Below are positions 11,103 through 53,488 of a stretch of 64,000 nt of DNA, piece after piece. The notes under the pieces were generated by a model. The model did not search any database and was not told the DNA's origin. It worked only from the letters and a program-made list of their open reading frames with translations. Where the stretch lies: positions 1-64,000 of the IMG/VR virus record IMGVR_UViG_3300027754_000047. One strand, 5' to 3'. The number at the start of each line of letters is the position of its first letter. Within the stretch, counting starts at the first letter, position 1. A program made the translations under genes and the position numbers. The stretch is from a virus.

Positions 11103-11196
11103 AGTGGTTCTCCTAAAAGTATAAAGCCACCTTAACGCTAAGGTGGCTTTATTATAGCTTTATTTAGCTAATATAGCTATATTGCCGTTGGGGCTA

Positions 11197-11343: not shown

Positions 11344-11346
11344 AGT

Positions 11347-32500: not shown

Positions 32501-35500
32501 AACCAGGCTGCTAGTCTATTAATGTGGCTAGAGATTACTCTCAGGCCATAACTAGGATTCCAAGCTGCATTTTGGTGGAGCTTAGTCTTTGGCAGTGTGC
32601 AGAATATTCCTAGAGAGGCCAAAATATCTACCAGTCTATCTCTCATTAACAAACTAGCAGTCCAAGCTTGTAGCTGTACGGCTCCATTAGTATCTGAGTG
32701 TAAGCAACCATCTCCAGACATGTAGCCTTGGATTAGGCCCTTACGAAACTCTACTGAGCGGAGCATAGTTTGCTCAGAGGGAGCCTTAGCGCCACTACCG
32801 TGTCCAAACTCTTGCCGCAGCCAAGTAGCGGTTTGCTTACAGGTAAAAGAGGCTTTACCTGTACTAACAGCATTGACGTGAACTTTAAACCCAAGTGTAG
32901 TCAAAAGGATATTAAGCTCTGCTTGCCGAGCTGCTGGTTGAGCGGCCAGTACTACTAAGTTTGGCTGACTTGCAGGTATGTGGCCCTCTGCTAAGTATAA
33001 TCCTGCCAATAAGCCCCAAGCATGAGTATCGTGATCCATGGTGCTGCAGGCGCCTAAGGTCATTCCTACTACAGGCAGTCGAGTTACGCCTACCTCACAG
33101 TCAGCTGGATATATGGGCACTAACTCTCCGGAGTCTCCTAGCGTAACTAAGGAGTGATCCTCAGTAGTAACCACTTGACGGCCAGATAGTGTAGTAGTCA
33201 GCACCAGGCGCTTAGTGTTAGGGATCTTAGCAAACCCTGTGATAGGCTCCCAAGCTGCCGCCTTAGTGTCCAGATTAATGGATCTTATTAGATCCCCTGA
33301 CTCTTGCTGATAGTCTTGGGCGGCTACTTGCTGAATTACTCCAGTTGCTCGTTTGATCCAAACTTTGGTAGCTCCGGCAACACACTTACGGTTAAAAGGA
33401 AAGTTGTTGTACAATTCGTACCGCTTCTTATCCTTGCCGTGCTTAACCTCAATGTAGTCTGCTGTTACATCGGTAACCAAACCTGCACCTAAAGCCGCAT
33501 CTGCTCTTACAGCACCTAAATAGGCTGATACTCCATCTTCGAAAGATTTACCTTCAGCATCGTTGGGATCCAGAGCTTGCACTAATGGTGCTTCTGCTTG
33601 CTGTAAAGGTAACGCTTGAGTGAAGTACTTTGAACCCATTAATAAGCGGCCACCCTTAATACCGGAAATACCAGGTACTAGGTTGGAGTTTAAATTAAAC
33701 ATGTTGGCATAGCTTGGTACCTCGTACTGTACAGCCTCAGGCTCTACGTAAGAGATCTTACCATTAACCATAGCTCGTACTGGGTCGCCGGTTCGTAAAG
33801 CCCTAGCAAGCTCGCCTGGAAAAGCTACAACAGCATCGGTAACAGTTCTAGCAGGTATTTGTTCAATCTTACCTGTTTGGATATTCTTCATCTTAGAGTA
33901 GATCTGGCCGTCAGAACCCTTTAAAGCTCCAATGGTTAATCTAAGATCTACACCTACTTGAGAAGATTCTGGAGTGCGTACTGGATCAATAAAGCCTAAG
34001 TGACTTGGTTGAACGGAGCGGGTATCTACAGGAATACCGTGGGCAGCAGAACCAATACCACCTTCGCCGGTGCGAATGACTCTAAGGTTCTGATCCAGAA
34101 TTTCCATTGGATTAACTTCTTCAATGGGCGCACCTAAACCCGAACCCATTAACACTCCACTAAGTACCGGAGTAAACACGCCGTTTCTAAATGCTTGTAA
34201 ATTGCCTTTATTGGTAGCCTTAAAAAGGGCACCACGTAAAGCACCTCCAGCATCTTTAACTATTCGCTCTGCAAAGAAATCCTCAGGGCCATAGAAACGT
34301 TGATAAGTTAAGGCATCGCGATCATCTACATCTTCGCTGCCCTTTTGAGCATTCAAAACCTTTTGACTAGCTCTTAGTAAGGTGCTGCCGGTAACTCTAG
34401 TTAAGTCTTCTTCGTTTAACTGAATGTGATCATTGCTTGCCTCAAAGTTAAACATAGGCTCAGTTGATTTAACTGGATCCATTAAACCGTTTAAATCGTC
34501 AAAGCCTGCTACCTTTACTCCGACAGCTAATCTAAAGCCACCTGTAGGCTTAGGATCTAATAATAAACTGCGGCGAAACTGCTCTAGTTCCGGACAATCA
34601 ATATCGATGCACCATTCTCCGTTATTAGGAGGTAAGACCTGGCGAACAATATAAGTGAAGCGCCGGCCATTACCGCAAGTAGCTTCAAACTTAGACTTAA
34701 AAAGCTTCTTTAGCTTTTTAATTTCTTCAGAAGTAATTACCACTAAACGGCCTTTGTCTTCTACTGGCGAGATACCTGGAGCATTATCTCCGTCTCTTAA
34801 AGCGTAGTAGACTCCGGTAACCATACCTGCAGGTACGGTGATATAACCTTCGGATTCTAATTTAAGGGTACCCCTCATAGGCACCGCTGCAGTCTTAACG
34901 CGAGCTCCTAAAGTTCTAGCTACTACTTCTTTATTAAGCTCAGTGTTATATAGGGCTGTACGAATACCTTCATACAGGTCAGGCTCACTTATGCCACTAG
35001 ATGGATTACTAGTAAGCCGCTCATATATACGAGCAGCATCATAAGGAGATGATGCTCTATTGTTAGCAAAAATCTCTTTGCCCCAGCTACGCTCAAGTAC
35101 CTCGTCTGGTACTCCGTAAGCCTTAAGCATAGGATATAGTGGCGCAACTGATTGACCAATTTCGGTAACAAACTTACCGGTATCTGGCATGAAGGCAACT
35201 CTAAAGCCTCGACCCTTACCCGGTAAGGTATTAAAGTGAGCTTCGTATTCACCCGACTTACGCTTACGTACATAAGCGCCGGGCAACAACCTAGCTTGAT
35301 TGGCTACAGTGTATTCGCTGCCTGCGTTTATAAAAGTGCCTCTGTTGGTTAAGTAAGGCACTCGAGCTAAAGTTAATGATCTATCTGTCTTATCTAGTAC
35401 AGCTCCGGTGGCTATATCTCGCATAACCAGCTTACCCTTTAACGGGTAATACAAACTTTGATTCTGCATCAAGGCTTGCTGTTGCTCTTTTAAACTGTAA

Positions 35501-35691
35501 TCTTCCGACTTACCATAACGCAAGTCAGTCAACTCCACTCTGTAGCGGGTATTTTGTAAAGGAAACTTAGCTGCTACTGCAGTAAAAACATTATCAAAGA
35601 TGTTTTTACGTGTAGCTGTGTAGTCGCTAAAGCCTCTAAGAGTTGGAGCTTGTGGTTGGATTAGGGCGTTTAAATCGTCCTCAGTAGCCAT
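29554..35691 (-). CDS. Phage multisubunit-type RNA polymerase: beta fused to the N-terminal (catalytic) part of beta', intein-containing
   Basis: Beta motifs VPYLTNRGTFI, SHLGFIDPVRTPES, LMGS...QALPL, GKNLKVAYM, NFEDG, GDKLVGRYGDKGVIS and LHHQAEGK. Beta' motifs GFFDEKIFG, FGHFPL, PVLPPRFRP, PVLITRAPVLH and the catalytic FNADFDGDQM. Confidence 0.93.
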   Translation of the reverse strand: MATEDDLNALIQPQAPTLRGFSDYTATRKNIFDNVFTAVAAKFPLQNTRYRVELTDLRYGKSEDYSLKEQQQALMQNQSLYYPLKGKLVMRDIATGAVLDKTDRSLTLARVPYLTNRGTFINAGSEYTVANQARLLPGAYVRKRKSGEYEAHFNTLPGKGRGFRVAFMPDTGKFVTEIGQSVAPLYPMLKAYGVPDEVLERSWGKEIFANNRASSPYDAARIYERLTSNPSSGISEPDLYEGIRTALYNTELNKEVVARTLGARVKTAAVPMRGTLKLESEGYITVPAGMVTGVYYALRDGDNAPGISPVEDKGRLVVITSEEIKKLKKLFKSKFEATCGNGRRFTYIVRQVLPPNNGEWCIDIDCPELEQFRRSLLLDPKPTGGFRLAVGVKVAGFDDLNGLMDPVKSTEPMFNFEASNDHIQLNEEDLTRVTGSTLLRASQKVLNAQKGSEDVDDRDALTYQRFYGPEDFFAERIVKDAGGALRGALFKATNKGNLQAFRNGVFTPVLSGVLMGSGLGAPIEEVNPMEILDQNLRVIRTGEGGIGSAAHGIPVDTRSVQPSHLGFIDPVRTPESSQVGVDLRLTIGALKGSDGQIYSKMKNIQTGKIEQIPARTVTDAVVAFPGELARALRTGDPVRAMVNGKISYVEPEAVQYEVPSYANMFNLNSNLVPGISGIKGGRLLMGSKYFTQALPLQQAEAPLVQALDPNDAEGKSFEDGVSAYLGAVRADAALGAGLVTDVTADYIEVKHGKDKKRYELYNNFPFNRKCVAGATKVWIKRATGVIQQVAAQDYQQESGDLIRSINLDTKAAAWEPITGFAKIPNTKRLVLTTTLSGRQVVTTEDHSLVTLGDSGELVPIYPADCEVGVTRLPVVGMTLGACSTMDHDTHAWGLLAGLYLAEGHIPASQPNLVVLAAQPAARQAELNILLTTLGFKVHVNAVSTGKASFTCKQTATWLRQEFGHGSGAKAPSEQTMLRSVEFRKGLIQGYMSGDGCLHSDTNGAVQLQAWTASLLMRDRLVDILASLGIFCTLPKTKLHQNAAWNPSYGLRVISSHINRLAAWFCYQDRNEKLNSLTSLSFRAATFDGIPVTQASRVLAYAGTGATTPHSVYKTATAGSYIQRHRIKSGVLKPWADSDVMWDTVVSITKAEPAAYVYDFEVASSQVFAVDCGLLVHNTYIHNTAGVKLGDQVKPGQLLAKSNYTDANGALAMGKNLKVAYMIWGDEELGGSNFEDGVVVSASAAKKMSSEHMYTVGYDNKDDYTADYNKFISLFPGQYSKDQLKQMDSTGVIKPGTVVNPGDPIILGVGERKSDTFGLVKKSRPSFTNRAQTWEHSQPGVVTDVTPTRTGWQVAIKSYKPMTAGDKLVGRYGDKGVISAVIEDSDMPQDKAGAAYEVIYNPLALVTRVNPVQAVEAALGKLAAQTGVPYKMPAFIDGSLIDFAQAELKKARVSDTETIFDPRLNKNIDNVFTGTRYFMNLHHQAEGKLSGRDTGGYSNEEAPVKGGSEGAKRIGIADVNSLLAHGAIEVLKDARLIRGQKNDEYWRAVKAGTPVPNVAVPFVWDKFVAQLKGAGVNVQRQGGIINIYGMTNSDVKAMSGGEVKSPKDIDFRTGKAVDGGFFDEKIFGVNQSSFGHFPLAAKVVNPVMEDAVRSLTGLTQKDFEAVVSGEDVKGIKGMAGLTAYLHNYDIPSQQAAAKKEMATAKGQKRSNAITKLAYLDGMAKRKIDPSEFLWDSMPVLPPRFRPITDTGSMQMVADMNFLYKELYSMNSNLKELQTELGADSTGKEQLALYRMVKATVGLTDPASAKLKQKNVNGLIRHLLGSNPKFSMFQRKVLSSTVEGVGNAVIAPDPSMDMDHVGVPEDMAFTVFRPYIIRALTAAGSSPIEAMKQVENKTDSARRALLYEMEKRPVLITRAPVLHKYNFMAAKPVLTTGNTMRMSPSVVVGFNADFDGDQMRLHVPSSAGAVKEAYDRMLPSRNLLSASTMKAHNFIKNEFLYGLFLASRKGADKNNVKSFRTKDDVIRAFNRGEIDATDTVKIVGGVG
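32161..33384 (-). mobile_element. Intein (408 aa) with a LAGLIDADG endonuclease in the RNAP beta region
   Basis: N-terminal C (FNRK|CVAG), block B TTEDH, LAGLYLAEG and GYMSGDG, block F VYDFEV, terminal HN followed by Thr +1. Confidence 0.92.
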
Positions 35692-39235: not shown

Positions 39236-40668
39236 TAAAGCGCTCCACTAGGTTTGGCGTCAGAGCCTGGTATTGATTCAAAACTACTAGGAGCTGTTTT
39301 GGCAGTATGGTAGGTTGAAGGAGTTGCAGCGGCTTGAGGAGCAAGGCCTACTCGATTAACAATAGAGTCGTGCAATGCCTGGGCTTTGGCAGGATCCTTG
39401 GCATACAACTCACTAAGTGTAGCGGTATACTGCTCAGGATGCAAAATTAACTGGCTAGCAAGTACGTAGTTAGGATCTGAGGGATTCCAGTCTTTAATAA
39501 CTTGAAGGCGTGGATCATTTGGATTTGCGTAATTTTCCAATTCGCTTTGAATACTAGCTACTTGAGCTTTATTTGCGTTAAAAGCTTTAGCTAGTTCTCT
39601 AGGATATTTCTGATCGCGATAAGACTTTCCTTGATAAGGATTTAAATTATTTAGGAAGTTTCCAAAGCGCCCTAATGTGTTAAAAATAGGCGATTGCTGG
39701 GCTCCGTAGGCATCAACCTGCGGCTGATACCTAGCATACTCCTCAGGATCGGAGGAGTTTGCTTGTGTATTTAATTCCTCAGTCTGTTCGGGAGTTAATT
39801 GAGATCGAATATCTCGTTCGTCAGGTTTTAGGCCGCCGAGGAAAGTGGAACCCACGAACCCAATAGGGCCTAAAGGAGAGACAGGAGTTCCACTAGCTAA
39901 CCCTTTAACTCCTTCAACGGCACCACTAAGCAAACTACCTGTATCTTGGTAAGCATCACTTGCAGAACCAATAGCATTACCCCAAAGATCTACTCCCATG
40001 CTGCCTGTTATGGCTGGAACCCCTAAATTAGTTACAGCTTTTTCCATGTTGCTACCAAAACCAGCTGCCTGATCCCATGGCTGCTTTAGGTATTGCATTA
40101 ACGCTCTAGGGTCTTGTATCCACTGCCTACCAGGGATTAATACATCTCTACCAAAGTTGTATGTGTTATTAAGAGCATTACGCCCTTGTTGAACAGCAAA
40201 GTTAACTGCTTGTTGAGTTCTAGGGTGATTGACCACGCCGGTTGCTGCTGTGGCTATAGGAGCCCCAAGCCTTACCGCTGTACCTGCTAGCGCTGATCCT
40301 GCGGCAGGTACAGCGTTAAGAGCGGCGCTACCCCCTGCTAACATTGCGGGCGCTGCTAAGGCGACGCCTGCGGCTCCGCCGGCTAAACCAGAAACGCCTG
40401 TAGATATGGCAGCAGCGTCTAACAGTTTATCATTCTGGTAATATAGGGGTTGCTTAGTAGTACCAGGTGCAGCGTTATTAACTCTACGGACAGTATCTAG
40501 CCAAGTGGAGTCGTCAGCATAGTCTGACCCAATACGACCACCTGACCAATAATGAGCAGCACCTGTAAAAGGTTCTGCCAATTGATTACCAAACGCAGCC
40601 AACGAACTAGGTGGGGCGGCTGCTCGTTTATTTAAAACAGAAAGAATGGGATACAGTCGAATATCCAT
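39235..40668 (-). CDS. Putative virion protein, paralogous N-domain to 28400-29557
   Basis: MDIRL...NKRAA leader; FGNQLAEPFTGAA domain. Confidence 0.7.
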   Translation of the reverse strand: MDIRLYPILSVLNKRAAAPPSSLAAFGNQLAEPFTGAAHYWSGGRIGSDYADDSTWLDTVRRVNNAAPGTTKQPLYYQNDKLLDAAAISTGVSGLAGGAAGVALAAPAMLAGGSAALNAVPAAGSALAGTAVRLGAPIATAATGVVNHPRTQQAVNFAVQQGRNALNNTYNFGRDVLIPGRQWIQDPRALMQYLKQPWDQAAGFGSNMEKAVTNLGVPAITGSMGVDLWGNAIGSASDAYQDTGSLLSGAVEGVKGLASGTPVSPLGPIGFVGSTFLGGLKPDERDIRSQLTPEQTEELNTQANSSDPEEYARYQPQVDAYGAQQSPIFNTLGRFGNFLNNLNPYQGKSYRDQKYPRELAKAFNANKAQVASIQSELENYANPNDPRLQVIKDWNPSDPNYVLASQLILHPEQYTATLSELYAKDPAKAQALHDSIVNRVGLAPQAAATPSTYHTAKTAPSSFESIPGSDAKPSGAL

Positions 40669-40722
40669 AGGGCTTCGTATTGTAACTGGAATACGGCTAA
40701 AATGACTGCTAAAAGGAACTAG

Positions 40723-40837
40723 GCCCTAAATCAAATGCCACGTTGCCTATACTATAGCACCTATATACACTTAGTATGGCTTAATAATTAGTATATATAG
40801 TGCTATAGTATAGGCAACGTGGCATTTGATTTAGGGC
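40723..40837. promoter_or_regulatory. Perfect 38-bp inverted repeat containing face-to-face promoter motifs
   Basis: Arms 40723-40760 and 40800-40837, each reading CTAAAT-N16-TATACT inward; lies between divergent gene blocks. Confidence 0.75.
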
Positions 40838-40915
40838 TCTCAGAGTATTTCTCTATAGAATAGGCAGTTAGCGGAGCAAGGTAAGCTTACATTAATTTGT
40901 GTTACAATTACCAGC

Positions 40916-41302
40916 ATGAAACCAGAATCCACCCCGTTCCTCAAGTTAGCAGAATTAATCGCTAGTGCAGCCTTGGAAGGTTGCGAAAAGGAGTATTCAA
41001 AGAAGACAGTTAAGGATCGCAGTAGTCGAGTTCAAGCTCGACGAGATATGATTCAGCGCCGAGGAGCTGCTGCAGTCAAGGGTAAGGATATTGAGCATAA
41101 AGATGGAAATCCTCGAAACAACAGTCCATCAAATTTAACCTTACGTAGTCGGGCAGCTAACAGATCTGACAACGGCCATCGTAAGGGTGAGCCGTACGCT
41201 AAGGCTAAGAAGGGTATCACTAACACTTACAAAAGAGCTATGGCTTTGCCGGGAGTATTATTTCGTTTAGCTACTAAGTTTGGAGGAAATAATGACAGCT
41301 GA
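40916..41302 (+). CDS. Small HNH-motif protein
   Basis: GKDIEHKDGNPRNNSPSNL...ANRS. Confidence 0.7.
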   Translation: MKPESTPFLKLAELIASAALEGCEKEYSKKTVKDRSSRVQARRDMIQRRGAAAVKGKDIEHKDGNPRNNSPSNLTLRSRAANRSDNGHRKGEPYAKAKKGITNTYKRAMALPGVLFRLATKFGGNNDS

Positions 41303-44112: not shown

Positions 44113-44409
44113 TCATTCAGCACAATGCACTAGCGAAAATGCTAGTGCATATGCAGCTGGCGCTGCCACCGGGGCCCAATAAGCCCTTACTTCGGTTATG
44201 ACATACACCATACTGGATCTCTTTCCATCCCGCAGGTGGTGCCTGTCCAAGATAACCTCATATCGATCATCCAGGATGTCGTCCAACCTGTCTGCTGTCT
44301 TTACCAACAACCCTAGCTTGCAGCAGGGAGACGCGCCCTGGTTGTTACCCACCGCTATGTAGCGGTGTAGTGGCTCCATCAATAGAAGCGTAGGCGTATC
44401 CGTTGTCAC
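44113..44409 (-). CDS. Hypothetical protein
   Basis: Probable GTG start overlapping the lysozyme stop, after GGAGG. Confidence 0.5.
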   Translation of the reverse strand: MTTDTPTLLLMEPLHRYIAVGNNQGASPCCKLGLLVKTADRLDDILDDRYEVILDRHHLRDGKRSSMVYVITEVRAYWAPVAAPAAYALAFSLVHCAE

Positions 44410-44822
44410 GGTGCCTCCAGTGCAGCCTGCACCTTGGCCCAATAACCCAAGGTAGCATTCTTGCGGTGCCCCTTAGGGCCGCCGTTATGCTGCCTTGCCA
44501 GCACTTCCATGCTCGCGTTCTTCGGCGCATAGCGCCGAAGGTAGGCCTTTACCACTTTCGTGGCGTAGGCCTTATCCTTACAATCGGCATACGTGCCGCC
44601 GATTGATTTGTCATACTGGGTCGCGTCAACCCAGTATGCCTTATGGATTTGGTAAGGCCCAATAGCCTTACCTTTGTCTCCGACCGCATTCGCGGGGTCG
44701 GCTTCGCCGCCAGTCTCCACCTGGCAAATGGCCTGGACTAATCGGTCCAGGTCGATGTCACTCACTTGCGCCTTCGCCTGGCTACAAGCCAAGGTAAGGA
44801 CAACCAATAAGATTCGGAGCAT
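44406..44822 (-). CDS. Secreted invertebrate-type (destabilase-like) lysozyme-fold muralytic enzyme
   Basis: Signal peptide; AICQVETGG, GDKGKAIGPYQIHKAYWVDA and LARQHNGGP. Confidence 0.8.
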   Translation of the reverse strand: MLRILLVVLTLACSQAKAQVSDIDLDRLVQAICQVETGGEADPANAVGDKGKAIGPYQIHKAYWVDATQYDKSIGGTYADCKDKAYATKVVKAYLRRYAPKNASMEVLARQHNGGPKGHRKNATLGYWAKVQAALEAP

Positions 44823-44863: not shown

Positions 44864-45541
44864 CTACGGAACGTCCGTAGGGTTACAAATTTGTTGTTTC
44901 TTTCGCGGGGCGCGAATACGGCGCACGCAACCCTTACGCCATCTAGCAGCAGTTGCCTTGCCGTCAAGGTTAACCCAGCTGTAGCTATTATCTTGCGCTT
45001 GCACTGCTTTACCTACTTCCCGCAGGGCTTCGTTGCTAAGCATGCAAATGTATCCTTTGGACCCGTCGATTCTTACTGCAACTTGTTTTTGCATCAGGTC
45101 CTCAATGTACAAAGCCTCTAACACCCAGCGCTGGTCTGGGTAAAGGTGAGCTTGATCTAACAGCTCTTTCAATTCCTCTTTATGAGGAACCTTTTTGGCT
45201 TGAGGGTCCCAAACGCATTTTGTTTTCATTTCGCTCAGCACCTTAACTGCATCAAAAGACAAAAACTTAGGCCTAGTTCGGTAATGAGTTCCTTGCCTAC
45301 CGTAAGTTTTTCGTATTAGGTCCTTCACGCAAAAGATGCTTTTGCGGGGAGCGAAGCTTAAATCTTTACCCACCCCCATTAGTTGCATGATGGCGTCATG
45401 GGCTGCTGATTCCGCATCCACTAAGGGGTCGTCTACTCGGCCTACTCTTTTAAGGTACTTCCGGCAAAGAAAGCAGCTTATGCGAATAGCCTTTTTGATA
45501 TTAGCCTCGGAATAATCTGGGGCTTCTATTACTGCTTCCAT
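44864..45541 (-). CDS. Sigma70-family (FliA/WhiG-like) sigma factor-like protein
   Basis: Region-4-like LYPDQRWVLEALYIEDLMQKQVAVRIDGSKGYICMLSNEALREV; degenerate region 2 DAESAAHDAIMQL...FA...IFCVKDLIRK. Confidence 0.65.
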   Translation of the reverse strand: MEAVIEAPDYSEANIKKAIRISCFLCRKYLKRVGRVDDPLVDAESAAHDAIMQLMGVGKDLSFAPRKSIFCVKDLIRKTYGRQGTHYRTRPKFLSFDAVKVLSEMKTKCVWDPQAKKVPHKEELKELLDQAHLYPDQRWVLEALYIEDLMQKQVAVRIDGSKGYICMLSNEALREVGKAVQAQDNSYSWVNLDGKATAARWRKGCVRRIRAPRKKQQICNPTDVP

Positions 45542-45967: not shown

Positions 45968-46157
45968 AAGGTAAGGCTTTAACTAAGCTGCTGTTCATGG
46001 AATTCCAGGATTCTTTGGACTTTTAAATCCATAAGGCGTAAATCCCGGTCTTGTCGTAGGTTTTCTCTACGCTCTAGGGCAGCTTAGTTAAAGGGGTCAG
46101 GCTGAGGAGCGCTGTACTCAACTCAGCCTAATTCAGTACGATTGTTAGTCGTATATC

Positions 46158-46186
46158 ATTATAACCCGTTTATGCTAAATTTTTAG
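46158..46186 (-). promoter_or_regulatory. Phage promoter CTAAAA-N17-TATAAT
   Basis: Upstream of the structured leader and tRNA(CAU). Confidence 0.7.
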
Positions 46187-46192
46187 CTTTAA

Positions 46193-46414
46193 TTAGTCAG
46201 ATAAATCTTCATCTTCTATTAGCAATTCCAAATCTAATTCACTATTTTTATTTTGTAAATCAGGGAAACTAATGTTGGTACTCGTTTGGCTAGGCTTATT
46301 TGCTAAGTTATTGGAGTAATCAATCTGAGCTTGGGTGTAGTCTGATTGTTTAACGTATGAGGTTGACAGTATTGCCTTGTACGAAATTAGTGTTTCTTTT
46401 TTACGACGACCCAT
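46193..46414 (-). CDS. Hypothetical protein
   Basis: ORF downstream of the promoter at 46464-46492. Confidence 0.5.
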   Translation of the reverse strand: MGRRKKETLISYKAILSTSYVKQSDYTQAQIDYSNNLANKPSQTSTNISFPDLQNKNSELDLELLIEDEDLSD

Positions 46415-46463
46415 TTTGCACCTGTTAGCTAAATGAAGAGCTCTAATGAGTTCTTTCTAAGTC

Positions 46464-46492
46464 ATTATAACTTATTTTTACCGAATGTTTAG
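46464..46492 (-). promoter_or_regulatory. Phage promoter CTAAAC-N17-TATAAT
   Basis: Motif match in an intergenic region. Confidence 0.6.
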
Positions 46493-46496
46493 TGGC

Positions 46497-47156
46497 TTAA
46501 AGTTGCATAGTTTCGACAAAAGGATTGCCATCAATGACTACTCCACAAGCTATAATAGGCTTTTTAAGAAAAGCTGCACCGTATTGCATAGCCCAATGGT
46601 TGCGATCCACTCCGCAACCAATGTTCATACCCCATACTTTAGCTGTTGGCCCTGCTTGATACCAGACTCCACAAGCTGAGTGATAGTGCCCTAATACCGT
46701 AGATTGCATTCGCAACTTGGCTGCATTGAATGCGGGTTGTTGGCCTCCGGCTCCTTCGCCGTGGTAGTAGTAGACTCCGTCGATTTCAACGTTATCTACC
46801 CATTTCCAACTATGAGTGTCGTATAAGGAGTTGAACTCCTTTAAGTAAAGCCTAGGAATTCCTAGTTTAGCGTTTAATCGAAGTACTCTTAGATCATGAT
46901 TACCTACAGTTATGCTTGCTGTAGGGAATGCTTCGTATAGTTGTTTAACTTGCTTACAAGCCAAGTCGTATTCTAATGCTGCTCCAGGATTCTCTGGGTG
47001 CTTATCGTGAAAAGATATGCAATGATGGTCAACAACGTCTCCAATATGTACTACCTTATCTATACGCCAACGTTTAGCAACTGCCTTTAAAAAGGGAATA
47101 TATTTGCGATGCATGGCTGGGGCGTGGGTGTCCCCGATTACTAATACTCTGCTCAT
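46497..47156 (-). CDS. Calcineurin-like metallophosphoesterase
   Basis: GDTH, IGDVVD, GNHD, HG and GHYH motifs. Confidence 0.88.
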   Translation of the reverse strand: MSRVLVIGDTHAPAMHRKYIPFLKAVAKRWRIDKVVHIGDVVDHHCISFHDKHPENPGAALEYDLACKQVKQLYEAFPTASITVGNHDLRVLRLNAKLGIPRLYLKEFNSLYDTHSWKWVDNVEIDGVYYYHGEGAGGQQPAFNAAKLRMQSTVLGHYHSACGVWYQAGPTAKVWGMNIGCGVDRNHWAMQYGAAFLKKPIIACGVVIDGNPFVETMQL

Positions 47157-47250
47157 TTAGGCTCCAAAGTAAGTGGATACTGTCAACTTATTGTTAGCTA
47201 AGGGCGCAGAGTAAGCAGGTAAGGTACCGGTGTCAAGTTTAGGCTATTGA

Positions 47251-47286
47251 TAGCTAAAAGAATGTGTAGGGTGGAACCCCTACACA
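47251..47286 (-). terminator. Terminator with a TTTAGCTA tail
   Basis: TGTGTAGGG/CCCTACACA stem. Confidence 0.75.
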
Positions 47287-47342
47287 CTCCCTTTGATTGA
47301 ACCTGTAAACCCGTTAGCAAACAGGTTCAAGTCCAAGCCAGG

Positions 47343-47717
47343 TTATCGCATTAACATAATGCGATCATTAATGATTTTGATCTTGCGCTTGTTAACAAGC
47401 CTTCGTAGGCGTTGGCCGATTTGCTGGCGGCTGAGACCTGCCTCAACTGCCGCCAGGTATATTTTTTGTTTCAGTACTACTCCTTCGGGGTCGCTGAGCT
47501 CACGCACTATCTTTAGCACTCCTGCCTCCAGGGGTTCTCCTTCCTTTGCCTTTTTTGGAGGCTTTGGAGGTGAGAACAAAGACTGCTTGGGCCCATCCAA
47601 TGTGGGGCTAACTTTGATGTCTAGGCTCCAACCGGAGCCGACGGCCGCAGTGTGTAGGGCTTCGGCTAATTGTACAATCTCTTTCAGTCTGGCAAACGGA
47701 CCTTTTATATCTTTCAT
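47343..47717 (-). CDS. Hypothetical protein with a possible C-terminal winged helix
   Basis: Start MKDIKG; GLSRQQIGQRLRRLVNKRKI. Confidence 0.55.
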   Translation of the reverse strand: MKDIKGPFARLKEIVQLAEALHTAAVGSGWSLDIKVSPTLDGPKQSLFSPPKPPKKAKEGEPLEAGVLKIVRELSDPEGVVLKQKIYLAAVEAGLSRQQIGQRLRRLVNKRKIKIINDRIMLMR

Positions 47718-47823
47718 AACAACGGGTTTCCTAAAAGCCCTCGGTAGACGCGTACCTTGGGTAAAATGACAACCGCCCTTACACACTACAAGTATGCAAG
47801 GGCGGGGCGTCGAATGTTTGTTT

Positions 47824-48231
47824 TTAACCCACAAAGCGTGGGTCGTGGTGTTCCCAACGGCCAGCCATCTGCTGGACCTTCTCCGCAGGGCAACCGTGGG
47901 TGTTTGACCAGCTGTTTTCACAGTGTACAACGAATACACTGTAGCCATACTTAGCGGCCAAACTAAGGTACGCCTCGTAGTCTCGCCTCACTACTGAGGT
48001 GTTAGCTACGGCCAAGCGGGGCCAATCAGCCCTCATTGCAGTAGTCACTTGCTCTTCGCACCACCGATGAGCTAGACTAAGCTTGGTGTAGTCGAATAGG
48101 TACTCTCCTGTTTCGTTCAGGAAATACTTATCCGCCTCAAAGGCGGGGCACGACAAATCCAGTGAAGCAGCCAAGCTGCTTTTACCTGAACCGGGCAACC
48201 CTCTGATAACGTACAAGATCTTTTGATTCAT
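47824..48231 (-). CDS. P-loop kinase (AAA_33 / polynucleotide-kinase-like)
   Basis: IRGLPGSGKS, EADKYF, AHRWC, VANT and NTHGCP. Confidence 0.8.
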   Translation of the reverse strand: MNQKILYVIRGLPGSGKSSLAASLDLSCPAFEADKYFLNETGEYLFDYTKLSLAHRWCEEQVTTAMRADWPRLAVANTSVVRRDYEAYLSLAAKYGYSVFVVHCENSWSNTHGCPAEKVQQMAGRWEHHDPRFVG

Positions 48232-48303
48232 TTCTTCCTCCTTTTAGCTGTGCTTTAGGCTTAACGCAAACCTAATTTTTAATGGTAACACAGTTCACAT
48301 GTT

Positions 48304-48332
48304 ATATTCACACAATAGGTGGGCTATTTTAA
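48304..48332 (-). promoter_or_regulatory. Phage promoter motif TTAAAA-N17-GAATAT
   Basis: Immediately follows the terminator at 48333-48364. Confidence 0.5.
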
Positions 48333-48364
48333 TAGCTAAATAAGGACCCCGGTTAGGGGTCCTT
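48333..48364 (-). terminator. Terminator with a TTTAGCTA tail
   Basis: AAGGACCCC/GGGGTCCTT stem. Confidence 0.7.
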
Positions 48365-48385
48365 GGGTCTCAAAAGCCCCTGTGT

Positions 48386-48832
48386 TTAGCTACCAGACTG
48401 CACGAAGATCGTTTCTCCTGCAGCTCCCGCTGCCTTTCCTGCAACACCCGCCGTCTTGTCCACCGCCTCCTGAGGAGGAGCTTTCATTCCCTCATCGGCG
48501 GGCCGTCGGTCCCTATTGGCCTGGGACCGGGCCTTGTCGTCCTCTTCAGAATTCTTGGCCTTCTTCCTGTCCATCACTTCGTTCGCCTTGGCTTCCACCA
48601 TTGGGGTGGAAGCAACCAGCATGCCGAGCGCGGCGAAGGCCAACGTCGTGATCGTGGCCATGCCGTTGAAGCCGGCCACCACCATCGAGCGGGTTTCATC
48701 CATGGACCAAGTCCACGGAAATAACCAGCTTTCCCCGCTAGCAGGGACCAAAGCGTCTCCGCCGCCAATGGCAACGAAGAAGAGAATCGACACAACCGCG
48801 TAGGGCATAAAGCCCCAGAAGAACTTCTTCAT
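48386..48832 (-). CDS. Membrane protein (two TM, charged tail)
   Basis: Two hydrophobic segments; has its own promoter, leader and terminator. Confidence 0.7.
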   Translation of the reverse strand: MKKFFWGFMPYAVVSILFFVAIGGGDALVPASGESWLFPWTWSMDETRSMVVAGFNGMATITTLAFAALGMLVASTPMVEAKANEVMDRKKAKNSEEDDKARSQANRDRRPADEGMKAPPQEAVDKTAGVAGKAAGAAGETIFVQSGS

Positions 48833-48921
48833 TCGAAGTTCCTTTCCGGGGTATTACCCCTAGTAGTCGCTTACTTGTAGTCAGGATTACGCACCCAACA
48901 GCAAGTATCGCTACTTATATA

Positions 48922-48950
48922 TATATACCGCAAAAGGGGGTCTATTTTAG
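48922..48950 (-). promoter_or_regulatory. Phage promoter CTAAAA-N17-TATATA
   Basis: Near-identical to the copies at 50208, 50386 and 50769. Confidence 0.8.
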
Positions 48951-48979
48951 TCCCTCAATACTGTCAACCTTTAATAGCT

Positions 48980-49476
48980 AAAAAGAACGATCCTTATGGC
49001 CCCGAAGGGTGGCAAGGATCGTTCTATAGCTGTTGCGGTGTTTCTGCAGAAACCTTGACAACAGCTAGTTATTGTTCCGGAACCTCCGGGCATGGCTTAC
49101 TAACACCTCTTCGTCCTGCCGCAACCTACTGATCTTGTAGGTCGCTTTAGTTATCCCCTCGCAAGGGGGGCGGTTTACGAGGGACAACCCAACTCTCGTT
49201 GGATTTCTAGGTAGGCTCTCGTCCCCTAGACATACCCACTCCAGTTTTATTAGAGTAGGCTGTTAATAGGTCCCTCACAGGTATGGGACCAACCTTGACT
49301 AGCCTCCGTTGCCACGGGGCGCTGCTCTTTTGCCGAGCCAGCATTAAAGTCGAACCTAAATGGAGTGTACAGCTCCAGTGCTACCGGGGGTATTTATTCC
49401 GGTAAGCTGCTAACCCACCAGTTAGGTAGGTCATACGGTAGGTACCGTAGGGCCCTATATATTGCTATATAGAGCT
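48980..49476 (-). ncRNA. Candidate ~500-nt multi-hairpin non-coding RNA
   Basis: No ORF of 60 aa or more; bounded by the promoter at 49482-49510 and the terminator at 48975-49025; about 16 consecutive stem-loops. Confidence 0.7.
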
Positions 49477-49481
49477 TATGT

Positions 49482-49510
49482 ATTATACCCCAAAAAGGAG
49501 GTTATTTTAG
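49482..49510 (-). promoter_or_regulatory. Phage promoter CTAAAA-N17-TATAAT
   Basis: Motif match directly after the terminator at 49522-49562. Confidence 0.8.
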
Positions 49511-49521
49511 CCTTACCTTGA

Positions 49522-49562
49522 TACCTAAAAAAAGCCCCCCAACTCCTTGCGGAGTGGGGGGC
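49522..49562 (-). terminator. Intrinsic terminator (TTTAGGTA tail)
   Basis: GCCCCCC-ACTCC stem followed by T7. Confidence 0.8.
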
Positions 49563-49583
49563 ATCGTCCATGGTGGGGGGCCT

Positions 49584-50111
49584 TTAGCGGCTCCACCACC
49601 ATGCCAACTGATCAGACCATGAAGGATTGGTCAACCGCTGCACTCGCTGCTCGCTCGCAATCTGCTGTGCGATTGCAGCAGAGGTGGCCGATTTGTTTCC
49701 CATCGACGCCCTAACATGGATCGCCGCCGTCCACGCCGGGATGCGGACGTAGTCAATTCCAGCAGCCTGCGCCACCCACGCATCGTGGGTGGTTTGGACC
49801 GTCATGATTGCAGCGACGCCCAAGTCGGGCGTCACCTTCGTCGCCGCTTCTACAGCGGCGCAAGTGGAGGCTCCTGCCTCCACAATTCCTTCTGGGGTGG
49901 TGGTGCACTCCACCTTAAGATCCAGCTGCTTCTGCAGCTGCTGCTCTGCCTCACTCCAAGCTGCCTTGGTCTCCTGGATGGAGACCAGCATGGCTGCGGC
50001 CTTTGCCGCAACCTCCTCCGCCGTCGGCGCCTTAGCCGAAGGTGGAGTCGCTTGGCAAACGCCTCCGATGAAGAAGGCGATTGTACAAACGAGTGTTAGA
50101 AGAGTCTTCAT
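49584..50111 (-). CDS. Secreted Ala-rich protein
   Basis: Signal peptide MKTLLTLVCTIAFFIGGVCQA; AGGAGG RBS. Confidence 0.75.
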   Translation of the reverse strand: MKTLLTLVCTIAFFIGGVCQATPPSAKAPTAEEVAAKAAAMLVSIQETKAAWSEAEQQLQKQLDLKVECTTTPEGIVEAGASTCAAVEAATKVTPDLGVAAIMTVQTTHDAWVAQAAGIDYVRIPAWTAAIHVRASMGNKSATSAAIAQQIASEQRVQRLTNPSWSDQLAWWWSR

Positions 50112-50207
50112 GAGACTCCTCCTTTCCGGGGTATTACCCCTTTAAGCTGTTGTTGACAGTATGAGCGGTTACGCAACCCTCATTATCAGCTACAACAGCC
50201 TTAGGTA

Positions 50208-50236
50208 TATATACCTCAAAAAGGGGTCTATTTTAG
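50208..50236 (-). promoter_or_regulatory. Phage promoter CTAAAA-N17-TATATA (left arm of a 35-bp inverted repeat)
   Basis: 50205-50239 is the exact reverse complement of 50383-50417. Confidence 0.8.
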
Positions 50237-50244
50237 CCCTAAAA

Positions 50245-50368
50245 AGGCCCTTTTAGGCCCTTTTAGGCCCTTTTAGGCCCTTTTAGGCCCTTTTAGGGCT
50301 ATTGACAGTTTTAGGCCCTTTTAGCCCTAAAAAGCCTCTTTTAGGCCCTTTTAGGCTCTTTTAGGCCT
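50245..50368 (+). repeat. Tandem decamer (AGGCCCTTTT)n; origin or terminus candidate
   Basis: Five perfect copies at 50245-50294 plus degenerate copies, interrupted by TTGACAGT, between outward-facing promoters. Confidence 0.85.
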
Positions 50369-50385
50369 GTTGACAGTATTAGGGG

Positions 50386-50414
50386 CTAAAATAGACCCCT
50401 TTTTGAGGTATATA
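50386..50414 (+). promoter_or_regulatory. Phage promoter CTAAAA-N17-TATATA (right arm)
   Basis: Exact inverted copy of 50208-50236. Confidence 0.8.
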
Positions 50415-50420
50415 TACATA

Positions 50421-50740
50421 TGGCCGTTATAGCTATATATAAGAGCTTATCCATGTCGGAATGGCCTTTATAGCTATAACGAGCCAATATGTAGTAGTAC
50501 GTATTGGCAGTTGATCCCCCTCACCCCTTGCGGGGTGGTGCAGGTCGCTAACCCTAAGGGGGAGGCTATCCGGACAGGTACCTCCTACGGTGGGGCCTTA
50601 ACCCGACCTCCCCCCCGAAGTCTGGGGTCACGGTTGCAATGCGAAACCTCCACATGAAGGTGTGGAACACGGGAATCGCGCTTAAGCCTATTGGAAATAG
50701 GGTGAAGCAAAAACCCCCCTGAAATGGGGGCTTTTTTTTT
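50421..50740 (+). ncRNA. Candidate ~320-nt structured non-coding RNA
   Basis: No ORF of 60 aa or more between the promoter at 50386-50414 and the terminator at 50714-50745; multiple stems. Confidence 0.65.
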
Positions 50741-50768
50741 AGCTATTAAAGGTTGACAGTATTAGGGG

Positions 50769-50797
50769 CTAAAATAAGGCTCCTTTTGAGGTATATA
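50769..50797 (+). promoter_or_regulatory. Phage promoter CTAAAA-N17-TATATA
   Basis: Motif match after a terminator. Confidence 0.8.
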
Positions 50798-50880
50798 TAT
50801 ATGTAGAGGGTTTAGACCTAATTGATGGGTGTTCCATTAATTAGAAACAAACCCTACTACTACTCTTGAAAGGAGTAGCC

Positions 50881-51084
50881 ATGTCAATAGTTTGGCAGCC
50901 GTCCTTACGGCATCCCAAATTCCAGGTCGTAAAAGACCTGGTCTTTGGAATCGTGGGAACAATGGACGGATGGGAAACCTCCTCCATTACTACCACGGAG
51001 CAGGCAGAGGCCCTGCTCCAGATCCCGGGGTGTCCCTTTGAGCAGGAGCTCAAGGAGATCATCAAGAAAGGAGTGAGCCCGTAA
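50881..51084 (+). CDS. Small hypothetical protein
   Basis: AAGGAG RBS before ATG 50881; own promoter and a terminator at 51076-51100. Confidence 0.7.
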   Translation: MSIVWQPSLRHPKFQVVKDLVFGIVGTMDGWETSSITTTEQAEALLQIPGCPFEQELKEIIKKGVSP

Positions 51085-51112
51085 GGGCTTTTTTTAGCTA
51101 TTAAAGTACCTA

Positions 51113-52984
51113 TTACTGTGGAGGCATTCCGGTTGCTGGCGGAGCCGGTTGCCTAAGTTGGTCTTTACCTTGGTTACCTGCTTGCTGAGTAATCTGATCC
51201 AACATACCCTTGATGACAGCATGTAGGTGAGGGTCTTGGCTCTTAATACCTTCCAAGATCTGCCTACGTTGCGGACTGCCCAATGGAGCCGTAGCCATGA
51301 TTTCGTTAACTCGGCCTTGAGCATCCCCAAAGAAGCTTTCCAAGTCCTTACCTGCTCCTGCAGCCGTAGGCCCAGCTACGCCGTTAATAGGCATTGCTGG
51401 AGCGCCCATACCGCCACCGATATTTGGCCCACCTGGCATACCGCCTGCTCCTGCTTCCTGCCCTGGGGCTCCAATGAAGGCTCCTGGAGGCGCAGCCATA
51501 ATCTGCTCGTTTTCTTCTGCTTTGCGCATGCGTTCCATGTAAGACTTTTCTTCTCGCATCTTGAACTCTTGCTCGCTTTGGCGCTTCTTGAAGGTGTCCT
51601 TCCAATCCAAGCCGAAGAGGGTAAGTACGTCTTGTTCCGATGCGACGCCTTGCATCATCATCTGCAACATCATCATGCGGCGTTCAATGTCATCTGCATG
51701 AGTAGGTCGAGTCAAGTTAACTTCACAAGGCAACCAGTTTAGAATAGCGCTAATTCTGTCAACAATCCAAGTTAAGGCTCGTTGTAAGCCGCCTAGAAAG
51801 ATAGTTTCCCCTGCTTCAAATAAACGAGCAGCAAAAGGGGCTGTTTGAACACTAAGGGTCTTACGGTACAGTTCTACTGGAACGCCTAAGCCGTTTAAGA
51901 AGTCAGCTTGGGCTGCATCTAACAGTTGTGGAGTAACAAAGTTCTTACCTTCACCGCCTAATAGTTGGTAATTAACTGGAGTAGGTAACCATTGCCAACC
52001 AGTGGGATCTTTACGAGCTCTATCAATAGAGCGCATAACCTGAGAGCCGAAGGAGCCAATGTTTACCGACTGCATAAAGTCGCCATTGGCTCCAATAGAT
52101 GCCGGAGTAACCAAGCGAATAGGCAACATATGATCTAAGGCAATAGCTTCGTTATTGCGCTTAAGTATTTGGGCTAGGTATGCATCCCTAAAGCCTGCAA
52201 TTACCGGAGGCAAACCCCATTCACCCATTTTGATGTCGCTAAGGTTGCCAATGGAGATATGGTGCAACATGCCGTCAGCAAACTGAAACAAGCTACTAGC
52301 TCGCACAGCTTGAACAATACCCCATGGAGCTTCTTGTAAGTACTTCTTATTGCCGGCCTGAATCAAGGTTCGGTCTTGACTCGGTACTTCGTAGTAATAC
52401 TCAGGAATACCTCCGTATGGCTGGTTTACGATTCTAATCTGCCGAATTGGCCAACGCTTAATAGTGATCTTATTCTCTTCTAGTGTAGGTCGATCATCTG
52501 GATTAAGCGTTTGAACCTGCTTACCGCAACTAGCGCACTTGTAACTAAACCCAGTGCTTAGACTAAACTTATATTCTACGTTAGCAATAGGCCGAGCTGC
52601 TCCACACTCAGCACAAGTTAAAAAGCGCTTAAATGGAGCTAATACCGAGATACAAGAATTACCGTAGACCTTGATATCCCGGCCAATCAAAAACAACAGA
52701 GTTTTAATCTGTTGTTTTTCTAAGAGGAACTTCTTGTACTCCGCCGCCTTATCTTCATCCTTAGTAATCACGTTAAGGTCGGTGCCGGTAAAGTAAGAAA
52801 CTACGTATTCAATAGCTTGGGCAAAAGTTCTATTGCTGTAATACATAGCCTCCGCCATCTCAAATGATTCGTTTATGTTCGTAGGCATATGCAGGGATGC
52901 ATAGTCTAAGAACGGACTAGGAATACTATCTGAGTGGCTTAAAGCTCGGCGCTTGCTAAAGTCTGGCGTTGAAAAATCTGGCAT
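51113..52984 (-). CDS. Putative portal protein
   Basis: 623 aa; GRDIKVYGN, WGLPP and FLNGLGVP segments reminiscent of portals; inserted Zn ribbon (CAEC/CASC); G/P/Q-rich tail. Confidence 0.5.
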   Translation of the reverse strand: MPDFSTPDFSKRRALSHSDSIPSPFLDYASLHMPTNINESFEMAEAMYYSNRTFAQAIEYVVSYFTGTDLNVITKDEDKAAEYKKFLLEKQQIKTLLFLIGRDIKVYGNSCISVLAPFKRFLTCAECGAARPIANVEYKFSLSTGFSYKCASCGKQVQTLNPDDRPTLEENKITIKRWPIRQIRIVNQPYGGIPEYYYEVPSQDRTLIQAGNKKYLQEAPWGIVQAVRASSLFQFADGMLHHISIGNLSDIKMGEWGLPPVIAGFRDAYLAQILKRNNEAIALDHMLPIRLVTPASIGANGDFMQSVNIGSFGSQVMRSIDRARKDPTGWQWLPTPVNYQLLGGEGKNFVTPQLLDAAQADFLNGLGVPVELYRKTLSVQTAPFAARLFEAGETIFLGGLQRALTWIVDRISAILNWLPCEVNLTRPTHADDIERRMMMLQMMMQGVASEQDVLTLFGLDWKDTFKKRQSEQEFKMREEKSYMERMRKAEENEQIMAAPPGAFIGAPGQEAGAGGMPGGPNIGGGMGAPAMPINGVAGPTAAGAGKDLESFFGDAQGRVNEIMATAPLGSPQRRQILEGIKSQDPHLHAVIKGMLDQITQQAGNQGKDQLRQPAPPATGMPPQ

Positions 52985-53328
52985 TAGTTGTTTCCATCTT
53001 CCGGCAGATCAATTACTTTACCTATTAAACTTCTAGCAAATTCATTACCGCCTAAAACTGCCCAATCGTAGGCAGTTAGTTCGTCGTCATCTACAGCTTC
53101 AGGATCTAAAGTTGGGTTAGCAATAACGTGAAAAGCAATCAAGTAGCTTACAATGTTAGGCTTGCTGTAATAAGCCGCCATCATAAGTATATTTCGATTT
53201 CCCTTATCTTTTAGCTCTAACAGCCTAGGAAACCTATCTAATAGCCTGTTCAAGAGTACCAGGTCTTCTCCTAGTAAGGCTCCAATAAACAAAGGTACCG
53301 CTTCTTTAATGTTACTTACTATCTTCAT
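52984..53328 (-). CDS. Ankyrin-repeat protein
   Basis: DKGNRNILMMAAYYSKPNIVSYLI and DDDELTAYDWAVLGGN; start after AAGGAG. Confidence 0.7.
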   Translation of the reverse strand: MKIVSNIKEAVPLFIGALLGEDLVLLNRLLDRFPRLLELKDKGNRNILMMAAYYSKPNIVSYLIAFHVIANPTLDPEAVDDDELTAYDWAVLGGNEFARSLIGKVIDLPEDGNN

Positions 53329-53488
53329 TAACTTGCTCCTTAGATGGCGCCTTGCATTTACATCGACACTTAATACCACAAGTAGGTAGTTCTGGGATTA
53401 GTTCGTCTGAAGCAACCTTAATAGCCTTGTCGGCAAGAAACTCAGCTTCTACTATTCCTCGTTTAATAAACTCTGATTGGTTTTCCAT
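53312..53488 (-). CDS. Small Cys-containing protein (58 aa)
   Basis: Hand translation MENQSEFIKRGIVEAEFLADKAIKVASDEL...CGIKCRCKCK... Confidence 0.45.
   Translation of the reverse strand: MENQSEFIKRGIVEAEFLADKAIKVASDELIPELPTCGIKCRCKCKAPSKEQVNEDSK

Follow-up and report, generated by a model that had tools for sequence, protein, structure and literature searches.

Positions 48975-49510 (minus strand) of a stretch of viral DNA, 64,000 nucleotides (nt) long and called here the window, contain a transcription unit placed between a promoter and a terminator of its own. The window is the first 64 kb of IMG/VR virus record IMGVR_UViG_3300027754_000047 (129,472 bp, estimated as 73% complete), which comes from an uncultivated giant freshwater phage. 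The core product of this unit, denoted nc1, is very probably a genuine, abundant and separately expressed structured non-coding RNA (ncRNA). In operational terms nc1 is an ncRNA gene, possessing its own promoter and terminator, having no coding capacity and being represented by a deep RNA contig in all four metatranscriptome runs compared. The original prediction, made from the letters of the DNA, had proposed a dedicated phage ncRNA gene, and this proposal is supported by the same traits together with the lack of any leader, Shine-Dalgarno sequence or protein remnant in the unit.

Expression of nc1 in lake water

A word search with region 48380-51110 retrieved 24 public sequencing runs, eight of them recorded as RNA, and the four RNA runs with the best match (X3, X4, X5 and X10) were compared over 46000-53000. 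These runs carry four study codes, all concern lake water from 2017 and possibly belong to one campaign. Each of them contains an nc1 contig that is 100% identical to the window, with no other letters: 49093-49455 in X3 (387 nt including 23 adapter letters, depth 304.8), 49094-49446 in X4 (353 nt, depth 46.9), 49076-49455 in X5 (380 nt, depth 26.8) and 49079-49466 in X10 (388 nt, depth 46.8). Listed flanking contigs reached depths of 3.4-15.1, 2.7-4.7, 2.4-3.1 and 2.2-4.0, respectively, the k-mer depth of nc1 thus being, as an indication, about 9-90 times that of flanking-gene contigs in the same runs. The flanking contigs span the portal gene and the genes for proteins of 175, 148 and 201 amino acids (aa), with 0-6 other letters. 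Since such flanking pieces occur in each run, the phage itself was present there, and a 9- to 90-fold contrast in depth cannot come from DNA carry-over. Of the discrete minus-strand transcript that the original prediction had put forward for a metatranscriptome check, an identical deep contig was recovered in four runs of four, while its strand is not given by the contigs.

All four nc1 contigs end within 49076-49094. The X3 contig runs directly into 23 letters of sequencing adapter, whose last T coincides with base 49093, which puts the junction at either 49093 or 49094. It weakly hints at a real RNA end, ...GUAAGCC(A), located some 70-120 nt upstream of the terminator. At the opposite side, the contigs stop at 49446-49466, which is 10-30 nt short of the predicted start at 49476/5 and usual for assembled RNA ends. 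Judged by contig ends, the data weakly suggest an abundant species of ~383 nt (about 355-390 nt) that ends before the last two hairpins, and not the RNA of ~500 nt originally envisaged. A precursor cut into small RNAs, another of the early proposals, is disfavoured, single contigs bridging ~350-390 nt. The region 48975-49075, comprising the trailer hairpin and the terminator, is almost uncovered (bin 48808-49041 has a value of 1.57 in X3 and 0 in the other three runs), and no RNA cover was found in any of the four runs over 50212-50913, where a second ORF-free unit (free of any open reading frame) and a repeat array are situated.

No differences among 1,484 aligned nt of nc1 were detected over the four runs, as against 16 in 5,660 nt of the listed flanking pieces. 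This is a weak sign of constraint on nc1, the flanking differences being clustered and seven pieces lying outside those listed.

Fold, coding capacity and family membership

Folding of the 506-nt transcript was compared with that of dinucleotide shuffles (n = 100; 20 shuffles for each local control). The minus strand has a minimum free energy (MFE) of -205.6 kcal/mol, compared with -158.6 +/- 7.1 in the shuffles (z-score -6.65), and none of the 100 shuffles was as good, which bears out the excess of folding that had been anticipated; the plus strand gave z -4.58. The MFE fold has 13 hairpin loops and 65% of bases paired, and maximum expected accuracy folds add two or three local alternatives, so the earlier count of about 16 stem-loops was a fair one and all 11 of the stems named with it have both arms present. 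Local hairpins are stable over four choices of transcript ends, while long-range pairs shift. The loops of nc1 are GCAA, ACCU, UAACU, AAUAAAUACCC, CUGUACA, GGCAAAA, GGCA, AUACCUGUGA, AUAAAAC, GAGA, UGCG and AAGAUCA, several of them being GNRA- or UNCG-like (GCAA, GAGA, UGCG). In a scan of 319 windows regressed on guanine-plus-cytosine (GC) content, two windows over nc1 ranked 7th and 8th on the minus strand. The same scan singled out intergenic region 40601-41000 on both strands. The GC content of nc1 itself (0.52, compared with ~0.45 in the phage) is a weak hint in favour of an ncRNA gene.

Assignment of nc1 to the minus strand rests on the orientation of its promoter and terminator, on the asymmetry of the two z-scores given above and on the side of the adapter, the last being protocol-dependent: if the X3 library was dUTP-stranded (an assumed protocol, dUTP standing for deoxyuridine triphosphate), the adapter side would put the RNA on the minus strand and the junction would be its 3' end. 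G-U pairs, offered at first as evidence of strand, proved uninformative, the MFE folds of the minus and plus strands having 16 and 17 of them, respectively.

Within nc1, the element CCUAC/ACCUAC occurs six times as compared with 1.08 in shuffles, most copies residing in 5' stem arms. The two halves of nc1 align with a score of 28, which does not differ significantly from 22.2 +/- 4.0 in shuffles and thus gives no sign of internal duplication. Direct repeats are limited to one two-copy family of 21 nt with 76% identity, and the window has no CRISPR-like array. RNAs built of repeats (type III antitoxin, CRISPR array, Racr) were rejected as models, there being no repeat units in nc1.

As the original prediction had stated, the unit has no open reading frame (ORF) of at least 60 aa, the longest being 45 aa. 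Translation table 4 opened no frame in the unit, and reading of TAG as Q yielded only frames of up to 95 aa, each needing one to three read-throughs. Six translated frames of the unit showed no similarity to the rest of the genome or to 60 phage loci collected for comparison (best E value 0.66), and a decayed gene was rejected on this ground. It is very improbable that the unit encodes one or several very small proteins (up to 45 aa), its structure being incidental. Frames of 40-45 aa with ATG or TTG starts do exist, one of them (40 aa, from 49093) having GAGGUG 10 nt upstream. This frame, however, crosses the terminator hairpin and stops after the U-run, so that it cannot be completed on a terminated transcript, and the deep contigs stop where it starts. 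The 45-aa frame lacks a Shine-Dalgarno sequence at normal spacing, whereas a strong, conserved leader containing GGAGG or AAGGA marks the cassettes next to it, and no similarity of these frames to any translated sequence available was found.

Rfam 15 was applied to the whole window at gathering thresholds (4227 models, including GOLLD, ROOL, OLE, RNase P, transfer-messenger RNA (tmRNA), 6S, group I/II introns, ribozymes and phage packaging RNA). It reported only two tRNAs and a group I intron, all outside the unit, so no family matched where the original prediction had asked about GOLLD, ROOL and OLE. Over 48800-49650, eight weak matches appeared at E up to 10, the best with 20 bits against a threshold of 39; they lie on terminators and flanks or clip the outer ends of the unit, and none falls into the RNA core. 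ARAGORN at default settings found no tRNA or tmRNA in the unit. Both programs thus agree with the early statement that RNase P, tmRNA, intron and tRNA signatures are missing. A tRNA- or tmRNA-like nc1 was rejected: when ARAGORN thresholds were lowered to 70-85%, mutually inconsistent results were obtained ('permuted tmRNA', 'tRNA-Ala', 'tRNA-Stop with intron'), the Rfam tRNA model had no match in the unit at E up to 10, and the 3' end ...GCC(A) at 49093/4 stands without acceptor or T-arm context.

These data bear on the idea that nc1 is a self-assembling 'ornate' RNA like GOLLD and ROOL, becoming multimeric through symmetric kissing loops and being abundant due to a structural role. We consider it unlikely. 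nc1 is indeed phage-encoded, several hundred nt long, densely structured, tetraloop-rich and very abundant; a tRNA-Met gene is placed ~3 kb away, and two of the predicted loops, each of 7 nt, include a word complementary to itself (UGUACA in the loop of UGGAG/CUCCA, GAUC in that of GCGACCUAC). Nevertheless, neither GOLLD, ROOL, OLE nor any other Rfam model matches it at E up to 10, its ~383 nt are less than half the size of GOLLD (over 800 nt), and no pseudoknots or covariation are known for it. Palindromic 4-mers in loops number 2 where ~2.4 are expected, and 6-mers 1 where 0.3 is expected; there being no excess over chance, palindromic loops were rejected as dimerisation sites.

The cassette array and its relatives

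The unit lies in an array of short cassettes, the features of which are listed in Table 1. The promoter motif CTAAAATA-N7-TTTTGNGGTATA has five copies in the window, all within 48.9-50.8 kb, the expected count being 0.00 for a strict degenerate pattern and 0.02 for a looser one, and there are no further copies elsewhere in the 129,472-bp record. Both expression signals of the original prediction were recovered: its promoter is an exact copy of this motif, and its terminator corresponds to the last MFE hairpin, followed by the U-run and AGCTA. A T-run with the AGCTA tail closes other cassettes as well. A simple terminator scan missed the nc1 terminator because its hairpin has inner bulges.

Table 1. 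Features of the RNA unit and adjoining cassettes (positions in the window)
Feature	Position	Strand	Remarks
Upstream cassette gene, 175-aa secreted protein	49584-50111	-	own terminator
Terminator of upstream cassette	49537-49554	-	terminator-like site; parts upstream mRNA from RNA unit
Promoter of RNA unit, CTAAAA-N17-TATAAT (CTAAAATAACCTCCTTTTTGGGGTATAAT)	49482-49510	-	exact copy of repeated phage cassette motif
Core RNA nc1, ~383 nt	49094-49476	-	predicted start A49476/G49475 (from -10 box) at first stem, to 49093/4; span of deep metatranscriptome contigs
Short hairpin CCGGA-GGU-UCCGG	49076-49093	-	in two of four RNA contigs (X5 to 49076, X10 to 49079); may be 3' precursor or alternative end
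Penultimate long hairpin, UAGCUGUUG...CAACAGCUA	49027-49067	-	in 3' trailer; from fold
Intrinsic terminator	48975-49025	-	12-bp outer stem + inner stem, U-run, AGCUA tail; last MFE hairpin (~49025-48985)
Promoter of next cassette	48924-48950	-	then leader, Shine-Dalgarno, 148-aa membrane-protein gene (48386-48832)

As the 148-aa gene has a separate promoter, the RNA unit is not its leader. A 5' leader, GGGGTAATACCCCGGAAAGGA, consisting of a small hairpin and then a Shine-Dalgarno sequence, is common to two unrelated cassette genes (48833-48870 and 50112-50150, minus strand), and relatives have analogous repeated leaders, which show as repeated N-terminal 'peptides' in ORF lists. In the neighbouring cassettes the leader carries GGAGG or AAGGA. 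Unlike both neighbouring ORFs, the RNA unit has neither the GGGGTAATACCCCGGAAAGGA leader nor a Shine-Dalgarno sequence. nc1 belongs to an array of self-contained cassettes that are built alike: the promoter is the same in all, a 5' hairpin precedes the payload, and the terminator has a common tail. The other payloads of the array are small secreted or membrane proteins, and the payload of nc1 is RNA.

About ten tandem copies of a decamer (GGCCCTTTTA-like) occur at ~50240-50360, between divergent identical promoters at 50236-50210 (minus strand) and 50386-50412 (plus strand), and among the 400-nt segments of the scan the one covering them pairs with itself most strongly (z -5.4 to -5.6). We find it scarcely credible that nc1 is a replication primer or origin transcript of the ColE1 RNA II kind, which would fit a decamer array 0.7-0.9 kb away. 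nc1 is structured, non-coding, strongly promoted and near this iteron-like repeat; its transcription, however, leads away from the repeat, with a whole gene and a terminator in between, cumulative GC skew makes no turn near 49-50 kb, and primer RNAs are not expected to accumulate as stable free species.

The same kind of cassette array is carried by 27 IMG/VR loci (portal identity 69-81%) and 12 JGI metagenome loci (portal identity up to 84%), and in most of the former 27 the stretch downstream of the portal gene has looser versions of the promoter. Homologues of nc1, sought in related phage contigs as the original prediction had advised, were not found by blastn or nhmmer. Specifically, nhmmer detected no nc1 in the 27 portal-related loci (E up to 1e-3) or in all 60 loci (E up to 10), blastn gave no homologue among 50,697 phage records, and BLAST found nc1 in none of five related virus records, two of which are complete genomes (174.6 and 183.5 kb). 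A single-sequence covariance model of five central hairpins (R2, 49187-49322) recognised its own locus only among five records and nothing in 22 loci. Exact 22-mers (one or two for each collection) were absent from viral, metagenome and genome contig collections, a search that misses diverged copies and from which records close to the own genome may be hidden. Nor were relatives of the two flanking proteins (148 and 175 aa) found in viral contigs. Full-text literature yielded no description of nc1 or of the cassettes of this phage group, which is not a proof of absence. nc1 is a singleton within a fast-changing accessory region.

Such a distribution is what a functionless by-product might show, that is, a remnant or captured piece of GC-richer foreign DNA maintained by a strong promoter, a 5' hairpin and RNase-resistant structure. 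nc1 is absent from all relatives examined, including the two complete genomes, its surroundings are a variable cassette array, its GC content exceeds that of the phage, and abundance by itself is no proof of function. On the other hand, no vestige of an earlier ORF, leader or Shine-Dalgarno sequence is left in the unit, two 22-mers have no source in genome, metagenome and viral collections, and promoter and terminator are intact, with exact consensus. Absence of differences over the four runs, while flanks vary, weakly points the same way, and it would be costly to make a useless RNA in greater amount than any other transcript of the region. On balance, a by-product is improbable to us.

RNA payloads seem to recur in the cassette array. 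A conserved ORF-free unit of ~240 nt, 'ncA', is present in several relatives (L004:10335-10582, L008:4440-4692, L013:9947-10168 and L041:1700-1960), four distinct sequences showing compensatory changes in 7 of 62 predicted pairs; it has no Rfam match. Similarly to nc1, ncA has the same promoter type, a 5' hairpin at its start, no ORF and a terminator with the T-run and AGCTA tail, and in L004 it occupies the place of nc1, with the promoter of the homologous membrane-protein gene following immediately. It differs from nc1 in size (~240 nt against ~383-500 nt). The ncA core, GCCGGAAU...ACCGGUACGGGA...GGCAG...CCCGAAAUGGGUAAG with hairpins, was used to build a model (R1) from the four sequences. 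When R1 was run over the whole window with filters off, a limit of E 10 admitted 20 matches; the leading one (E 0.018) lies at 28858-28934, and none is on the nc1 strand inside the unit. The core is present neither in nc1 nor anywhere else in the window. No ncA-nc1 similarity was seen by nhmmer, and two short colinear matches, of 10 and 13 nt, do not exceed what shuffles give. With no R1 match and colinear matches at shuffle level, nc1 as a diverged ncA was rejected.

The ncA core pattern CCGGAATNNNACCGGTACGGGA has 22 letters, and all 19 specified ones fit the reverse complement of the variable-arm/T-arm region of tRNA-Leu(UAA) from unrelated phages. Among 22 stretches with this pattern, about half are ncA copies and most others lie within or beside tRNA genes, tRNA-Leu being confirmed in three of four loci checked. 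The ncA core may be an antisense tRNA-derived module. In L013, a GC-rich, hairpin-packed stretch of ~340 nt (11076-11414) is preceded by a promoter-like site and followed by a terminator that has the same tail; the stretch contains only implausible ORFs and is not similar to nc1. The window itself harbours a second ORF-free unit of ~320 nt (50413-50745, plus strand) with the identical promoter at 50386-50412 and a terminator made of a hairpin and U9. The last 50 nt of this second unit are similar to the 3' end of the L013 ncA (score 39, shuffles 17 +/- 2), but the ncA core model has no match in the unit.

The wider setting is that of a phage that encodes its own multisubunit RNA polymerase. 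A fused beta/beta'-like subunit of 2045 aa (29554-35691, minus strand) is interrupted by an intein with a LAGLIDADG domain, and the product of gene 44864-45541 gives a weak match to sigma-70 region 4 (E 6e-4, below the Pfam cut-off). The portal gene (51113-52984, minus strand) lies ~1.6-2.1 kb from nc1, and its product is 26-28% identical to portals of four isolated phages of ~180-187 kb, three from Vibrio and one from Salmonella. The tRNA-Met gene ~3 kb from nc1 was located by ARAGORN. The group I intron (RF00028, 22323-22591, minus strand) is situated within a coding region and scores 59.3 bits, above the gathering score.

Further neighbouring or cassette genes are found at 44406-44822, 46497-47156, 47824-48231 and 52984-53379 (minus strand), functions among these four including a destabilase-like lysozyme, a calcineurin-like metallophosphoesterase, a P-loop kinase (AAA_33) and an ankyrin-repeat protein. 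The kinase has a weak polynucleotide-kinase match (E 1.3e-4) and, together with the metallophosphoesterase, is kept in related phages. Both genes are neighbours of nc1; RNA ligase and RtcB were not found, and an RNA-repair context for nc1 was dropped; a search with the T4 Rnl1 family matched nowhere, controls included, and is uninformative.

Possible role of nc1 and comparison with known phage RNAs

The following course of events would account for these observations. Transcription probably starts at ~49476, right at a stabilising 5' hairpin, and the product is predicted to fold into ~13 dense hairpins, several with GNRA- or UNCG-type tetraloops. A species of ~383 nt piles up far above neighbouring mRNAs, and the apparent position of its 3' end (49093/4), upstream of the terminator, suggests 3' trimming back to a helix. 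nc1 would then act as a folded RNA, neither via a peptide nor by pairing with other phage transcripts. Most likely, it would bind one or more host or phage proteins during infection and titrate or organise them, in the manner of a decoy or scaffold.

A protein-binding role fits the extreme abundance of nc1, its location in a fast-changing accessory region and the six copies of the ACCUAC/CCUAC element, a mild excess. Such a decoy or scaffold is ranked first because complementarity to the phage's own genome beyond chance, GGA loops, repeats and a reverse transcriptase, Ro or RNA-ligase partner are all missing. As to these partners, neither RVT_1 nor TROVE matched in the record (73% complete), while controls matched in three and two known genomes, respectively; ncRNAs of retron or DRT type and Ro-associated Y RNAs were rejected, the 129-kb record having no reverse transcriptase or Ro partner. 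We put protein binding forward tentatively as the mechanism, and the whole explanation, combining an ncRNA gene, a folded RNA and a protein-binding decoy or scaffold, is likewise a possible one which we prefer with reserve.

Several observations count against this explanation or soften the data behind it. Depth, given as a single k-mer value for each contig, measures expression poorly, which makes the contrast with flanking genes indicative and not quantitative, and the runs were chosen for holding words of the studied stretch. The contigs reveal neither strand nor true ends, and the first 5' bases and the 3' trailer are absent from them. Strong folding also occurs elsewhere: two of 19 coding control windows of 400 nt have z of -6 or lower (-6.1 and -6.4, at 18801-19200 and 39501-39900, minus strand; mean of all -1.3, standard deviation 2.1), compared with -5.15 for the nc1 core. 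The fold of nc1 is thus unusual but not unique within the genome, and folding energy alone is not decisive. With multiple testing allowed for, the CCUAC count of six is marginal: for the most frequent 5-mer, shuffles have a 95th percentile of 5 and a 99th of 7. The copies also lie mostly in stems, not in loops. As no homologue of nc1 turned up in the collections searched, no base pair has covariation support and conservation is not shown. Finally, no candidate protein partner is known.

Pairing with other RNAs instead of proteins was also considered. As a trans-acting base-pairing regulator or sponge, nc1 would use its loops to pair with host mRNAs, small RNAs or tRNAs. Phage small RNAs of such kind are known, and nc1 is abundant and independent of any cis gene. 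Complementarity was examined against the phage's own genome, and there it is at shuffle level (longest Watson-Crick run 13, shuffles 12-13; with G-U pairs 18, shuffles 17-21), for which antisense pairing to the phage's own genome was rejected. Moreover, with 383 nt and 65% of bases paired, nc1 is far larger and more structured than typical base-pairing small RNAs. We regard such a regulator as quite unlikely.

A broader proposal would make nc1 the founding member of a new phage RNA class, large in size and highly expressed. The cassettes of the clade would then carry fast-evolving 'RNA morons' beside protein morons (nc1, ncA, the 50413-50745 unit and the L013 unit). These RNAs would be either multivalent decoys for host defences that target or sense RNA, or particles that assemble by themselves. 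This proposal is speculative and rather doubtful. If different RNA payloads truly share the array across relatives, accessory regions of giant phages would hold RNA-based tools of host takeover or counter-defence beside protein ones. Expression of nc1 in nature is unusually well supported, and this is where its interest lies; it is limited by singleton status without covariation, structure and function resting on prediction until relatives are found. As a clean portable cassette, apparently far more abundant than its neighbours in environmental RNA, nc1 is directly testable in vitro without a cultured phage.

Among phage RNAs, T4 encodes stable RNAs C and D with no assigned function, and the packaging RNA of phi29 is needed for its packaging motor; these RNAs have ~120-175 nt. 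They are much smaller than nc1, and the phage packaging-RNA family has no match in it. CsrB/RsmZ sponges consist of hairpins arranged as beads on a string, reach high abundance and titrate proteins multivalently. They share with nc1 the beads-on-a-string look and the proposed titration model, but the GGA loop motifs which define CsrB/Rsm RNAs are absent from all predicted nc1 loops, and no Rfam match exists.

RNA anti-CRISPRs (Racrs), according to PMC10651486, are phage non-coding RNAs that disarm a host system by mimicry. The idea of a decoy RNA is common to them and nc1. Racrs, however, are small solitary CRISPR-repeat mimics, while nc1 has no repeat units, its single two-copy repeat apart. 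GOLLD and ROOL, according to bioRxiv 10.1101/2024.12.08.627333, are RNAs of phages or prophages with no function assigned as yet; they are often close to tRNA islands and build cages of RNA only via symmetric kissing loops. The same paper states that GOLLD exceeds 800 nt and that its expression rises during lysis. Few large structured RNAs are known from phages, and those few (GOLLD, ROOL) proved to be remarkable assemblies made of RNA only. GOLLD and ROOL are the nearest known kind to nc1, having in common with it phage origin, length of several hundred nt, dense structure and absence of ORFs. nc1 differs from them in having no match to their Rfam models, in being shorter, in having no covariation-supported structure and in being carried in a promoter-terminator cassette of a phage with its own RNA polymerase. 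It matches no described RNA family and is a new large structured phage RNA.

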